A stretch of 47,435 nt of DNA. Origin: Aquificota bacterium (GTDB lineage Bacteria > Aquificota > Aquificia > Aquificales > QOAS01). The DNA lies in NCBI GenBank assembly GCA_013154305.1, contig JAADCT010000035.1, forward strand, positions 1-47,435, read 5' to 3'. The position numbers and the translations under genes are program-made. The number at the start of each line of letters is the position of its first letter. Position 1 is the stretch's first letter. The notes beneath the pieces were generated by a model. It was not told where the DNA came from, made no database searches, and saw only the letters and a program-made list of their open reading frames with translations. Positions 17,929 through 22,076 of the stretch are shown here, in pieces.

Positions 17929-19227
17929 ATGGGTCGAATTTCCCTTCTTCCCGAGGAGGTCAGAAAGGTTTTGGCCGCCGGGGAGGTGGTCGAGCGTCCC
18001 GCGTCGGTGGTCAAGGAGCTGGTCGAAAACGCCCTCGACGCCGGTGCGGGCCGCGTTGAGGTGGAGATTGTCGGTGCGGGCAAGAGGTTGATAAAGGTCC
18101 GCGACGACGGTGAGGGTATTTTAAGGGAGGACCTGCCGAAGGTCGTTTTGGAGGGGGCCACCTCGAAGGTCTCCTCGCTGGAGGACCTCTACTCGCTCAA
18201 AACCTACGGCTTTAGGGGCGAGGCCCTCCACTCGATAGCCCGCGTTTCCGACTTTTTGGTCCGCAGTCGCCACTTTTCCCAGGAAAGGGGTGCCGAGCTC
18301 TACGCGCCGGGGGCAGAGGTCCGCTACGTGAAGGAGCTGGCCCACCCGGTGGGCACCACCGTCGAGGTCCGAAACCTCTTTTTCAACCTGCCGGCGAGGC
18401 TGCGGTTTTTAAAGTCGCCGAGGACGGAAAGAAGACTCGTTTTCGAAACGGTGGCGGCCTACGCGCTGGCCCATCCGGAGCGTTCCTTTCGCCTCGAGGC
18501 CGAAGGGCGCGAGCTCTTTGACCTGAAACCCTCCTCGGTTGAGGAGAGGATGGCGGCGCTCTTTGACCTCGACTATCCGCCGGAGCATCGGGCGGCCGAG
18601 GGCGACGAGGGAAGGGCCGAGCTTTACTACTACCAAAACTACAAAAGCAACCGGTTTTTAATCTTTTTAAACGGGCGGCCGATAAAAAATCGGGAGCTTC
18701 AGACCTACCTCAAAAACCGTTTGGGTTACCGCGCCCTGGCGGTCCTCTTTTTGGAACTTCCGCCCCATCTGGTGGACTGGAACGTTCACCCCCGGAAGGA
18801 GGAGGTCCGCTTTTTGAAAGAGAGAAAGGTCCTCGGGCTGGTCGGCGCGCTCTTTGGCCGACCGAGGGTCGAGGACCCCCTTTCCTCCCTTTTGAGGAGA
18901 CCGACGGTCGTTTCCTACGGGAGCGGGTTGAAGTTTGAGGTGCTGGGCCAGGTGGAGGAAACGCTGATTTTGGCCTACCGCGACGGGTTTCTCTACTTTT
19001 TCGACCAACACCTTTTGGACGAGAGCGTTCGTTTCGCTCAAAGCGGCGACGCCGCTTCGGCCTGCCGCCGGGCTCTGAAGGCGGGCCGCGAACTGTCGAG
19101 GGAGGAAATGGAGGAGCTCGTCAGGCGCTGGTGCGAGGCGGGGGAGCCCCGGACCTGCCCCCACGGGCGGCCCGTCTTTTACAAGCTCCCCCTTTCGGAG
19201 GTCTACGCCAAGATAGACCGTCAGTAG
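17929..19227 (+). CDS. mutL: DNA mismatch repair protein MutL (short Aquifex-type)
   Basis: AGEVVERPASVVKELVENALDA, GFRGEAL, DQH, ACR and CPHGRP motifs; 432 aa. Confidence 0.95.
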   Translation: MGRISLLPEEVRKVLAAGEVVERPASVVKELVENALDAGAGRVEVEIVGAGKRLIKVRDDGEGILREDLPKVVLEGATSKVSSLEDLYSLKTYGFRGEALHSIARVSDFLVRSRHFSQERGAELYAPGAEVRYVKELAHPVGTTVEVRNLFFNLPARLRFLKSPRTERRLVFETVAAYALAHPERSFRLEAEGRELFDLKPSSVEERMAALFDLDYPPEHRAAEGDEGRAELYYYQNYKSNRFLIFLNGRPIKNRELQTYLKNRLGYRALAVLFLELPPHLVDWNVHPRKEEVRFLKERKVLGLVGALFGRPRVEDPLSSLLRRPTVVSYGSGLKFEVLGQVEETLILAYRDGFLYFFDQHLLDESVRFAQSGDAASACRRALKAGRELSREEMEELVRRWCEAGEPRTCPHGRPVFYKLPLSEVYAKIDRQ

Positions 19228-19982
19228 ATGAGGGCGCTGAGAAAGTAGTCGACTATCAGTATCAGCATCGAGGAGGTTACGACCGAGGCGGTGGTGGCCC
19301 TTCCGACGCCCTCGGCGCCCCCGCGGGTGGCAAAGCCGAAGTAGCAGCTGACGGCCGCTATGATGAGACCGAAGACGGCCGCCTTTATCAGGCCCCCCAG
19401 AAAGTCGTAAAACTCGACGATGTCCCGCATCTTCTGCCAAAAGAGGTATTCGTTGACGCCAAAGAGCTTTACGGCGACGAACCAACCGCCGAAGATGCCG
19501 ACCACGTCGGCCACAATAGTCAGCAGGGGAAGCGAAACGACGGCGGCGAAAATCCGCGGGCTCACCAGGTAGCGGACGGGATTGACGGCCAAAACGCGCA
19601 GGGCGTCGATTTGCTCCGTTATTTTCATCGTTCCGATTTGGGCCGTCATCGCCGAGCCGACCCGCGCCACCACCATCAGGGCCGTCAGGACGGGGCCCAG
19701 TTCCCTCGCCATCGAGATGGCCACGACCGCCCCCAGCAGGTATTCGGCGCTGAAGCGGTGGAAGGTCGAATAGGTTTCCACCACTATGACGCCGCCGGAA
19801 AAGAAGGAGGTGACCAGGACGACGGGCAGGGTTTCGGCGCCGACGTAAGAGAGCTGTTTTATCAGGTGTTCGGCCTTCGGCGGTTTTCGGAGGAGAAACC
19901 AAATCGCCCGCAGGGTAAGAAGGGTCGCCTCCCCCACGGCGGTAAAGAAGCGAACGAGTCTTTCCCTAAAGGCGGACAACAT
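19221..19982 (-). CDS. mlaE: MlaE-family ABC transporter permease
   Basis: RELGPVLTAL, IGTMKITEQIDAL and GGAEGVGRATT motifs. Confidence 0.92.
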   Translation of the reverse strand: MLSAFRERLVRFFTAVGEATLLTLRAIWFLLRKPPKAEHLIKQLSYVGAETLPVVLVTSFFSGGVIVVETYSTFHRFSAEYLLGAVVAISMARELGPVLTALMVVARVGSAMTAQIGTMKITEQIDALRVLAVNPVRYLVSPRIFAAVVSLPLLTIVADVVGIFGGWFVAVKLFGVNEYLFWQKMRDIVEFYDFLGGLIKAAVFGLIIAAVSCYFGFATRGGAEGVGRATTASVVTSSMLILIVDYFLSALIY

Positions 19983-20072
19983 CAAAAAATAGTTTCTCCC
20001 CGCCGACGGAAAGGGCGGGAAAAAGGACCGCGGGCGTAAAAGTTTTAAAAAAGACCGCCGAAGGAGGGAGGT

Positions 20073-21182
20073 TCAGTCCCCCCCTTCGGGGGAAACGACG
20101 ACCCTTATCGGCAGGCCGTACTTTCGGGCAAACTCGTAGTCCCTCTCGTCGTGGGCGGGAACGGCCATTATGGCGCCCGTTCCGTATTCGGCCAAAACGT
20201 AGTTGGCGGTCCAAATCGGTATCAGGTCCCCCGTCAGGGGGTGGATGGCGTACCTGCCCGTAAAGACGCCTTCCTTTTCTTTGACCCTGCGGCGTTCCTC
20301 GACCGGCGTCTTCTTTATCCTCTCGAGAAACTCCTTTACCTTCTCCTCCTGCGGGGTTCCCTCGGCGAGTTTTTCCGTCAGGGGGTGTTCGGGCGCCAGG
20401 ACGAGGAAGGTGACGCCAAAGAGCGTGTCGGGACGGGTGGTAAAGACGACGATTTCGTCGCCGGTATCTTCGACCTTAAAAACTATTTCGGCGCCCTCGG
20501 AGCGCCCAATCCAATTCCTCTGCTGGGCGATGACCCTCTCGGGCCACTTGCCTTCGAGCTTTTTCAGGTCCTCCAAAAGTCGGTCGGCGTAGGCGGTAAT
20601 CTTCAGATACCAGGAGGGGATTTCCCTTTGGACCACCTCGCTGTCGCAGCGCCAGCAGCGGCCCTCTATCACCTGTTCGTTGGCCAAAACGGTTTCGCAG
20701 GAGGGGCACCAGTTTACTACGGCGCTCTTTCGGTAGGCGATGCCCCTTTCGAGCATCTTTAGAAATATCCACTGGTTCCACTTGTAGTATTCGGGGTCGC
20801 AGGTGGCTATCTCGCGGTCCCAGTCGTAGGACAGGCCGAGCCGCTTTAGCTGGCGGCGCATGTTTTCGATGTTCTTTTCGGTCCACTCGGCGGGGTGGAT
20901 TTTGTGCTTTATCGCCGCATTTTCGGCCGGCAGGCCGAAGGCGTCCCAACCCATCGGGTGGAGGACGTTTTTGCCCTTCATTCGGAGGTATCGGGCAATC
21001 GCGTCGCCTATGGTGTAGTTTCTAACGTGACCCATGTGGATGTTTCCCGAAGGGTAGGGAAACATTTCGAGGACGTACTGCTTCGCGTCCCGCGGCCGGT
21101 CCTCGGAGGCCTTAAAGGCCTTTTCCTCCTCCCATATTCGTTGCCACTTCTTTTCCACCTTTCGGGGGTCGTAGCGCTCCAT
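20073..21182 (-). CDS. leuS: Leucyl-tRNA synthetase N-terminal fragment (369 aa; split subunit or truncated)
   Basis: MFPYPSG-HMGH, Zn domain CPSC/CWRC, CP1 TTRPDT and [15 protein letters not shown]; stops before the end of CP1, with no KMSKS. Confidence 0.92.
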
Positions 21183-21221
21183 CGCAAGGGTAATATTTTG
21201 GCACCGCCGCCCCGCGGCCCC

Positions 21222-22076
21222 TCAGAGCTCCAGCCTCCAGTTGTCTATCAGCCTCGCCGACGGCATCCTAACGGCCACCAGTATGCGCTCGCCGCCCTTA
21301 ATCTCCCGGGCCGGCTCCAGCGTTTCGGGGTCGACCACCGCAACGTAGTCGACCTTTTCTATCAGCGGGAAGGACTTTAGAAACTCCAGCAGGCGCCTTT
21401 CCAGCTCCCGCGGGTCGCGCAGGCCCTCCTCGACCAGCCTTTGGGCCAGCTGAAAGCTCCGGTAGAGGGCCGTCGCCTGCCTTCTCTCCTCGGGGGAGAG
21501 GTAGGCGTTTCGCGAGCTCATGGCCAGACCGTCGGGCTCGCGCACGGTGGGGCAGGGAACGACTTGAGTCTCCAAGTCGAGGTCGCGGACCATCCTTTCG
21601 ACCACCTTCAGCTGTTGGTAGTCCTTTTCCCCGAAGTAGGCCCGGTCGGGTCTGACCAGGTTGAGGAGTTTGGTCACCACCGTGCAAACGCCCCTAAAGT
21701 GGCCGGGCCGAAATTCCCCCTCCCACCTTTTGGACAGTTCGGTCTCCTCGACGAAGGTGGAAAAGTTTTTCGGATACATCTCCTCCGCCGAAGGGGCGAA
21801 GACGGCGTCGACGCCCTCCCTTTCGAGGAGCCGAAGGTCCCTTTCGAGGTCCCTCGGATAGCGCTCGAAGTCCTCGCCGGGACCGAACTGGGTCGGATTT
21901 ACGAATATCGAAACCACCACCAGGTCGTTTTCCCCCCTCGCCCTCCTTACGAGGGAAAGGTGCCCCTCGTGCAGGTATCCCATCGTGGGAACGAAACCGA
22001 CCGTCTTTCCCCCCTTTCTGGCCTCCCTCAGGAAAGAGCGCAGCTCCTCTTTTGTCCTAAAAAGCCTTACCGCCAT
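21222..22076 (-). CDS. panC: Pantoate-beta-alanine ligase
   Basis: [35 protein letters not shown] and RLIDN motifs. Confidence 0.96.

Follow-up and report, generated by a model that had tools for sequence, protein, structure and literature searches.

The stretch of DNA analyzed here (hereafter the window) comprises 47,435 nucleotides of contig JAADCT010000035.1 from an Aquificota genome (GCA_013154305.1, here G000: 78 contigs, 1.15 Mb, 94% complete), and it carries a leucyl-tRNA synthetase (LeuRS) gene that stops inside the editing domain of the enzyme, known as connective polypeptide 1 (CP1). Specifically, the open reading frame (ORF) at 20073..21182 on the minus strand encodes 369 amino acids (aa), starts with ATG, ends with TGA and is uninterrupted in the ORF list and its translation. 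The remainder of LeuRS was detected in the same genome as two further genes on two other contigs, and the same arrangement recurs in the genus. The gene in the window, designated piece 1, has the following features.

20073..21182, minus strand: leuS piece 1 (alpha1), with the HIGH-bearing N-terminal half of the Rossmann fold, the ZN1 module, the N-terminal linker of CP1 and, of the CP1 editing domain itself, roughly the first three quarters
21027..21038, minus strand: HIGH signature HMGH, residues 49-52 of the translation, with H49, M50, G51 and H52 invariant in alignment A1
20646..20708, minus strand: Zn-module cysteines C159, C162, C176 and C179 (CPSC...CWRC) of the translation, with C159, C176 and C179 invariant in A1
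20424..20441, minus strand: Thr-rich editing motif TTRPDT, residues 248-253, with T248, T249, R250, D252 and T253 invariant in A1
20139..20183, minus strand: editing-site motif, residues 334-348, including the conserved Asp345 (AHDERD), with G336 to D345, R347 and D348 invariant in A1
20073..20075, minus strand: TGA stop of piece 1, inside the CP1 variable loop, aligned to the loop P.EGE/WDFEK.AY of single-chain alpha subunits

Pfam matched PF00133 to residues 13-224 of piece 1 (E 2.7e-36) and the LeuRS editing domain PF13603 to residues 222-368 (E 1.9e-64). The latter match ends at position 145 of the 185 in the profile (positions 1-145), and thus the editing domain is truncated by the stop codon. 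The NCBIfam model leuS_bact (TIGR00396) matched over positions 1-363 of 843 with 597.1 bits, above its cut-off of 548.4, and piece 1 aligns to residues 1-365 of Thermus thermophilus LeuRS (1h3n). The identification of piece 1 as a LeuRS with a truncated editing domain is far beyond chance. A previous reading of this stretch from its letters alone (the sequence-only reading) had described an intact 369-aa ORF with HMGH, a Zn domain, TTRPDT and the editing Asp motif, and a frame that stops inside CP1. All of these elements are present in the translation, and the Pfam and TIGR00396 matches agree with them. We take TTRPDT of piece 1 to be the motif with a role in editing that is familiar from the LeuRS literature.

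The remainder of LeuRS in the same genome

A search of G000 with TIGR00396 revealed two further LeuRS-specific stretches, at C57:1148-1768 (model 360-569, 322 bits) and at C54:42008-42781 (model 591-843, 243 bits). Together with piece 1 (model 1-363) they tile the model on adjoining positions across three contigs, and all three pieces are complete ORFs, each having a start and a stop of its own. The two additional genes are as follows.

G000:C57:1148-1885: leuS piece 2, 245 aa, with the end of CP1 (last ~40 residues) and the returning linker strand, another Cys4 module, the second Rossmann half and, from the leucine-specific domain, its first half
G000:C54:41897-42784: leuS piece 3 (Aquifex-type beta), 295 aa, with KMSKS, the anticodon-binding domain and the C-terminal domain

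Piece 2 starts with MEENKKLPYTGRGKLVNSGEF..., at an ATG located 3 codons past an in-frame stop, and contains both RLRDWNVSRQRYWG, on the returning linker strand (RLRDW..SRQRYWG region), and GGIEHAVLHLLYARFF. It maps to residues 376-581 of T. thermophilus LeuRS, and its residues 5-38 match the tail of the editing domain, so that PF13603 is shared out between two chains, with piece 1 covering positions 1-145 of the profile and piece 2 covering 152-185. The motifs TTRPDT and AHDERD are invariant. In piece 3 the anticodon-binding domain PF08264 was found at residues 134-256 (E 4.2e-27). Signatures of bacterial LeuRS are present at both ends of the enzyme, namely HMGH in piece 1 and KMSKS in piece 3.

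Neither a second LeuRS nor a contiguous alpha subunit was found in G000 with bacterial and archaeal LeuRS models. The other matches to these models were low-scoring Ile, Val and Met paralogues and two weak paralogous frames on C77 and C47, and the top score of the archaeal model was 112 bits versus a cut-off of 648. In one NCBI record (Aquificae bacterium), the middle piece has no more specific name than 'class I tRNA ligase family protein'.

Position and origin of the break

In an alignment with 30 single-chain alpha or full-length relatives, the end of piece 1 and the start of piece 2 share one variable loop (...PEGGD followed by MEENKKLPYTGRG, versus ...P.EGE WDFEK.AYEEEG in the relatives), and no residues are lost at the break. 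Accordingly, the two pieces add up to 614 aa (369 + 245), versus 595-622 aa in the alpha subunits of relatives, and all columns that are invariant in alignments with relatives are retained in the pieces. The break corresponds to residues ~366-375 of T. thermophilus LeuRS, near the C-terminal end of CP1, and the alignment agrees with its earlier placement in the variable loop before the last CP1 segment. The second break, between pieces 2 and 3, falls where relatives have their alpha/beta break: the model match of piece 2 runs to position ~569 and that of piece 3 begins at ~591, compared with 570/571 and 588-603 in two-piece relatives.

Trees of the piece-1 and piece-2 regions were built separately, with four full-length sequences from family f5 as the root; these were quick trees with support from the Shimodaira-Hasegawa-like approximate likelihood ratio test (SH-aLRT) only. 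In one case the f2 label is wrong: row L063, which carries it, is identical to row L023 of f3. The genus was monophyletic in both trees (SH-aLRT 100 for piece 1 and 99 for piece 2) and joined the two-piece Aquificaceae-like family f2 (SH-aLRT 90 and 89-93), which takes in Hydrogenobacter and a bin labelled 'Aquifex sp.'. Within the flanks compared, the pieces and the alpha genes of relatives had no neighbour gene in common. The break between pieces 1 and 2 is best explained as a secondary fission, which would have taken place in the ancestor of the genus on a LeuRS already carrying the alpha/beta break. An additional fission, leading to a three-subunit LeuRS with an editing domain put together in trans, was the option preferred by the sequence-only reading, and it is this option that has held up: the missing parts are two further genes, on C57 (245 aa) and C54 (295 aa), the same breakpoint is present across the genus (in seven of its eight genomes), and the beta break is that of Aquifex.

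Full-length LeuRS of family f3 (genera g3, g4 and g7) are interleaved with two-piece enzymes on the trees, an arrangement that needs 3-4 changes, at least 2 of them forced by well-supported branches. This implies that the alpha/beta break was gained, lost or transferred more than once. In the two-piece relative G033, the alpha (C1:736553-738325) and beta (C1:740041-740820) genes are located 1.7 kb apart on the same strand, a proximity that could represent an early stage of alpha/beta fission.

Distribution in the genus and beyond

The genus set consisted of 8 genomes (G000-G007) of hydrothermal-vent bacteria, all of them incomplete metagenome bins (85-95% complete). Piece 1 was present in 7 of the 8, with the same end loop in all seven, and only in G004 (95% complete) was it not detected. 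Piece 2 was detected in 6 genomes, one of which, G004, has it clipped by the contig start; it was not detected in G002 or G003 (88% and 85% complete), while piece 3 was present in all 8 (partial in G003). No frame running through the break between pieces 1 and 2 was found in any genome of the genus, and no internal stops were found in the pieces. The stop codon of piece 1 is TGA in 2 genomes, TAA in 4 and TAG in 1. The gene downstream of piece 1 is mlaE in 5 genomes (tblastn), flhF-like in G006 and purC-like in G007, the last two names being read off the translations and not obtained by a search. Pieces 1 and 2 were on separate contigs wherever both were found, and a 130-kb metagenome contig carries piece 2 alone, between an apparent glycine-cleavage P-protein gene and an unassigned gene.

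Within the same order, LeuRS is two-piece in all 17 genomes of family f2 and in 10 of the 16 of family f3, the other 6 being full-length. A match to piece 2 was obtained in 157 of the 178 genomes searched across the phylum; a free frame of piece-2 size beginning at the query start occurred only in the genus and in none of the 170 other genomes. Five short LeuRS frames outside the genus (G104, G052, G056, G093 and G112) all end at contig ends, and therefore none of them is a split. Other short frames (G043, G060, G078, G094, G127, G081 and G042) are 381-535 aa, which is longer than piece 2, and a 205-aa LeuRS frame in G089:C63 begins at base 9 of its contig. Proteins like piece 2 were also recovered from a collection of 5.8 billion proteins, in which 11 clusters (232-244 aa, 81-88% identity) match it; the 3 clusters inspected all begin like piece 2. 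The 250-aa protein P0012, which represents a more distant lineage and is encoded on an 831-bp contig, is 68% identical to piece 2 and has the same kind of start (MKQHNNLPYKGEG...), and a metagenome scan with P0012 retrieved only genus members, at 69-71% identity to P0012. In addition, a 225-aa LeuRS fragment (P0016) that is 70% identical to piece 2 and starts with MLFNSGAFDG comes from a 942-kb contig at NCBI that belongs to another organism, where an alpha gene was probably frameshifted or called wrongly.

Selection and predicted assembly

Nei-Gojobori estimates between species of the genus gave proportions of nonsynonymous differences (pN) of 0.07-0.18 versus proportions of synonymous differences (pS) of 0.63-0.88, at which synonymous sites are saturated. 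In unsaturated pairs, the ratio of nonsynonymous to synonymous rates (dN/dS) was 0.030 for piece 1 (G001/G002), 0.025 for piece 2 (G004/G005), and 0.059 (G004/G005) and 0.085 (G001/G002) for piece 3. All three pieces are thus under strong purifying selection (dN/dS 0.03-0.09).

The complex of pieces 1 and 2 was predicted from alignments made for this analysis, which had 25 and 23 rows, respectively. The interaction prediction score from aligned errors (ipSAE) was 0.83 versus 0.00 for the best control. Of 157 solved complexes, 116 reached that mark, as did 2 of 215 mismatched pairs. Contacts agreed between runs in at least 93%, and the predicted local distance difference test (pLDDT) value of the partner was at least 82. 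The contacts with the lowest error were a strand pairing in the Rossmann sheet (residues 36-38 of piece 1 with 160-163 of piece 2) and a pairing of the CP1 linker strands (191-196 of piece 1 with 53-55 of piece 2). Further contacts in the model involve the tail of piece 1 (359-367), the head of piece 2 (7-19) and the editing-site region (342-349). Subunit modelling was one of the checks proposed with the earlier claim, and its outcome is favourable to it, although it may reflect likeness to solved LeuRS: since single-chain LeuRS structures have been solved, the pass may come from likeness or memory. The model is a prediction that shows the pieces to fit the known LeuRS fold, not to bind each other.

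Flanks of piece 1 and expression signals

The neighbourhood of piece 1 in the window contains the following features.

20048..20089, minus strand: terminator-like hairpin (12 pairs, 8 of them G-C) followed by a T-run, overlapping the stop codon of piece 1, from a consensus scan
21191..21199, minus strand: AT-rich -10-like box AAAATATTA, 9-17 nt upstream of the ATG of piece 1, with no Shine-Dalgarno motif
19221..19985, minus strand: mlaE permease gene (Pfam PF02405, E 1e-82), downstream neighbour of piece 1
21222..22076, minus strand: panC (pantoate-beta-alanine ligase; ORF list and Pfam), 39 bp upstream of piece 1

The spacer between the stop of piece 1 and the start of mlaE is 87 bp long and, in keeping with the earlier description of 87 bp of non-LeuRS sequence, it carries the hairpin and no LeuRS sequence. 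The hairpin scan was by consensus only and gave 6 sites in the region, versus 3.3 expected.

A Shine-Dalgarno motif is absent before all three LeuRS genes. At 7-17 nt upstream of the ATG they have instead an AT-rich -10-like box, in G000 as well as in its congeners, and one such box is located at about 1130-1141 of locus L002. Genome-wide in G000, 222 ORFs with unambiguous starts showed an AT peak at -19..-8, with TANNNT ending at -16..-9, and a separate Shine-Dalgarno peak at -12..-7, which represents a second gene class. This pattern suggests that the LeuRS pieces may have their own promoters and leaderless or short-leader mRNAs.

Public runs from hydrothermal vent metagenomes were also compared with positions 19700-21400 of the window (X1 and X2 from DNA and X3 from RNA, with word shares of 0.30, 0.13 and 0.06, respectively). 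Near-identical short contigs from X1 covered 19879-20029, 20394-20544 and 21021-21400. The RNA contigs of X3 were 90-95% alike to the window and therefore derive from relatives.

A three-gene LeuRS and the alternatives

The clean and recurrent break, the purifying selection and the lack of any other LeuRS together indicate a real extra fission on top of the Aquifex alpha/beta split. On the basis of the observed gene structure, conservation, selection and uniqueness of the pieces, we estimate a probability of roughly 0.85 that the LeuRS of this genus, encoded in three unlinked genes, is a heterotrimer whose editing domain is made from two chains; assembly, leucylation and editing are what we infer. 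A three-chain complex is favored because it is the only reading that leaves the cell a LeuRS. In such a complex, piece 1 would contribute the Rossmann half with HIGH, the Zn module and the larger part of CP1 with its Thr-rich motif and catalytic Asp; the end of CP1 and the second Rossmann half would come from piece 2, and the KMSKS, anticodon-binding and C-terminal domains from piece 3. The three chains would associate non-covalently into the ordinary LeuRS architecture, with pieces 1 and 2 likely held together by the parallel Rossmann sheet and by completion of the editing fold through the 40-50 N-terminal residues of piece 2.

Several points weigh against the heterotrimer. Piece 2 of G000 is located on a contig of only 3086 bp, so that its assignment to this bin depends on phylogeny and on the congeners. 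An extra LeuRS could be hidden, given that all eight bins are incomplete, but such a gene would need to be missing from all eight. No contig from the public reads X1-X3 bridges position 20073. Finally, the title of a paper cited in the available part of PMC3664829 calls the E292-A293 bond in CP1 of E. coli LeuRS essential for activity, which means that not every cut in CP1 is tolerated; the site differs from that of the break described here.

Among the alternatives, all of them unlikely, the least so is that piece 1 acts on its own as a trans-editing or regulatory protein, either in place of a role as LeuRS subunit or besides it. The editing-site motifs in piece 1 are compatible with this role, and so are its own promoter-like box and terminator-like hairpin. 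However, the sole HIGH half of LeuRS in the genome is in piece 1, which is thus needed for synthesis, and all invariant synthetic-site columns are retained in it. Likewise, the last 40 positions of the editing profile are absent from piece 1 and sit on piece 2. A trans-editing protein would consist of an editing domain without elements of the synthetic site, and piece 1 has both the HIGH half and the Zn module. The free-standing editing paralog offered as an option by the sequence-only reading is accordingly improbable, as half of the synthetic site is present in the only LeuRS N-terminal part of the genome.

A decaying pseudogene or a recent truncation, with leucylation carried out by another, unassembled gene, is less probable still. 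Genes can be missing from bins that are 85-95% complete, but no other LeuRS was found in any of the 8 genomes. The ORF ends are identical in 7 species whose synonymous sites are saturated, the pieces have no internal stops, and dN/dS is 0.03-0.09 in all three. A full-length alpha subunit elsewhere combined with relaxed selection on piece 1 would have favored this explanation; no such alpha was found in G000, and dN/dS is low.

There is a very slight chance that post-translational joining of the chains, through protein trans-splicing or ligation, yields an ordinary alpha-beta LeuRS. The long DnaE frames of congeners, with gaps in their matches (see below), may mean that inteins exist in this lineage. 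On the other hand, pieces 1 and 2 contain no extra residues, and a sum of 614 aa versus 595-622 aa in relatives leaves no room for split-intein halves; Pfam gave synthetase domains only on both pieces, and no intein family.

An artefact of assembly or binning, either a chimeric contig at 20073 or pieces from different organisms, can practically be dismissed: although the junction is not bridged by public contigs and piece 2 of G000 is on a 3-kb contig, 7 independent assemblies end the ORF in the same loop with a stop codon and with three different neighbour genes, piece 2 has its own ATG just 3 codons past an in-frame stop, and the piece-1 and piece-2 trees are congruent. The misjoin or recent truncation that had been kept in view by the sequence-only reading is unlikely on the same grounds (7 assemblies sharing the ORF end, 3 contexts, dN/dS ~0.03-0.07).

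Comparison with known systems

The LeuRS of Aquifex aeolicus is a heterodimeric alpha-beta enzyme (Xu et al. 2002; Ma et al. 2006; PMC3643597, PMC4005665 and PMC4975002, in the parts available). In the available part of PMC4005665, it is named as the natural split LeuRS, and no advantage of the split had been identified so far. The enzyme described here is similar to it in being of the bacterial type, in having the leucine-specific domain broken just before KMSKS and in the size of the beta subunit (~290-295 aa; piece 3 has 295). The C-terminus of piece 2 also aligns with the C-termini of Aquifex-type alpha subunits, and the pieces group with the two-piece Aquificaceae-type enzymes. In contrast, the alpha subunit of A. 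aeolicus (~600-634 aa) contains the whole CP1, whereas alpha is represented here by 369 + 245 aa on different contigs. Since alpha is cut inside CP1, the enzyme needs three gene products and its editing domain comes from two chains.

Breaks between the Rossmann halves have precedents in the laboratory. Fragments of E. coli IleRS and MetRS were reportedly shown by Shiba and Schimmel in 1992 to complement each other. A spontaneous cleavage of E. coli LeuRS at E292-A293 in CP1 is described in the available part of PMC3664829. As in these laboratory-split IleRS and MetRS and in the cleaved E. coli LeuRS, the break described here is in the connective polypeptide between the Rossmann halves, and by analogy non-covalent reassembly would be expected. 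Unlike laboratory-split or accidental cuts, it is natural, fixed and selected, and it is located at T. thermophilus residues ~366-375 rather than at E. coli residue 292.

Naturally split synthetase genes are known from archaea, namely AlaRS of Nanoarchaeota and genes of Altiarchaeales (PMC4975002, available part). The resemblance, as far as that part of the source goes, is an essential synthetase in unlinked gene pieces in a lineage with small genomes from a hot or subsurface habitat. However, those are enzymes of another class in another domain of life, they are in two pieces, and none is said there to divide an editing domain. Another natural departure from the standard architecture at CP1 is the LeuRS of Mycoplasma mobile, which is without CP1 (PMC3643597 and PMC4005665, available parts); the editing domain was lost in that enzyme, whereas here it is retained, with invariant motifs, and divided between two chains. 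A LeuRS that is encoded in nature by three genes and whose editing domain would be divided over two chains appears to be new; the alpha/beta break itself is known from Aquifex. No report of a three-piece LeuRS, a divided CP1 or split bacterial IleRS or ValRS was found in full-text literature searches, whose coverage leaves out most subscription journals.

A three-piece LeuRS would show that CP1 can form from two chains in a working cell. It would also offer a natural system for studying the communication between editing and synthetic sites, as the hinge strands are on different polypeptides, and a thermostable, self-assembling set of fragments for structural and engineering work. The arrangement bears on ideas of class I synthetases growing from smaller modules around the CP insertion. 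It also carries a lesson for annotation, given that checks for completeness or pseudogenes could wrongly flag such genes as fragments.

Split IleRS and ValRS and other large genes

Two related class Ia synthetases, isoleucyl-tRNA synthetase (IleRS) and valyl-tRNA synthetase (ValRS), are also split in this genus. Their pieces in G000 are listed here with lengths that depend on the start codons we chose.

G000:C40:11614-13032, plus strand: IleRS N piece (locus L227), 472 aa, ileS model 2-430
G000:C72:32366-33925, minus strand: IleRS C piece (locus L228), 519 aa, ileS model 429-856
G000:C29:930-3008, minus strand: ValRS N piece (locus L230), 692 aa, valS model 2-430
G000:C26:15957-17216, minus strand: ValRS C piece (locus L229), 419 aa, valS model 462-860

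The IleRS pieces align to residues 2-421 and 419-913 of Staphylococcus aureus IleRS (1ffy), placing the break at about residue 420; the N piece ends with ...ATPQWF.AMD.P... (...ATPQWFIAMD in G000) and the C piece starts with M..KK.TLR...RPDWCISRQR. IleRS is two-piece in 7 of the 8 genomes, and no IleRS pieces were found in G007 at E 1e-80. The ValRS pieces align to residues 2-425 and 474-858 of T. thermophilus ValRS (1gax), with the break at about residue 472, and the N piece carries ~245 extra terminal residues compared with that enzyme. It ends with ...DVLDTWFSSALWPF..FG.PE..., and the C piece starts with M...DL... ValRS is two-piece in all 8 genomes, clipped by contig ends in G002 and G007. 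The ends of the stop-to-stop frames of IleRS and ValRS agree among G000, G001, G005 and G006, and none of them reaches a locus edge. In relatives of families f2 and f3, each enzyme is a single frame in 17 of 17 (IleRS 922-984 aa, ValRS 974-1168 aa). Separately, the ValRS of this order has an insertion of ~100-300 aa at valS model 430-438 that has no counterpart in T. thermophilus (residues ~449-692 of the N piece), and the ValRS break falls directly after it.

The IleRS, LeuRS and ValRS of the genus thus amount to seven unlinked genes for three enzymes (2 + 3 + 2). The three new breaks are at non-homologous residues, and judging from motifs and known structures all three are presumably in the connective polypeptide between the Rossmann halves. 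No splits were found in other long genes of G000, namely RpoC (1589 aa), SecA (986 aa) and MetRS (within a 643-aa frame). With IleRS and ValRS divided but RpoC and SecA intact, and DnaE intact in congeners, the pattern points to something particular to class Ia synthetases in this lineage. It is conceivable, though we consider it doubtful, that the fission of all three CP1-bearing class Ia synthetases reflects a lineage-specific driver or use and not neutral drift. Such a driver would be, for example, the separate synthesis and folding of the N-terminal half and the editing module at high temperature, or the control of proofreading through subunit supply. If true, these would be natural, selected two-part class I synthetases whose cores meet in trans.

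Two observations on other genes of G000 complete the survey. The AlaRS model TIGR00344 had no match at E 1e-15 in this 94% complete genome, and the gene may be unassembled or something odder. DnaE was considered as a further split and rejected, as it is one long frame in congeners and both parts in G000 stop at contig ends. The DnaE frames are 1407-2213 aa in G001, G002, G004, G005 and G006 and in the relatives G017 and G019, with the match broken at 363 and 675/676, and these gaps may correspond to one or two inserted inteins.

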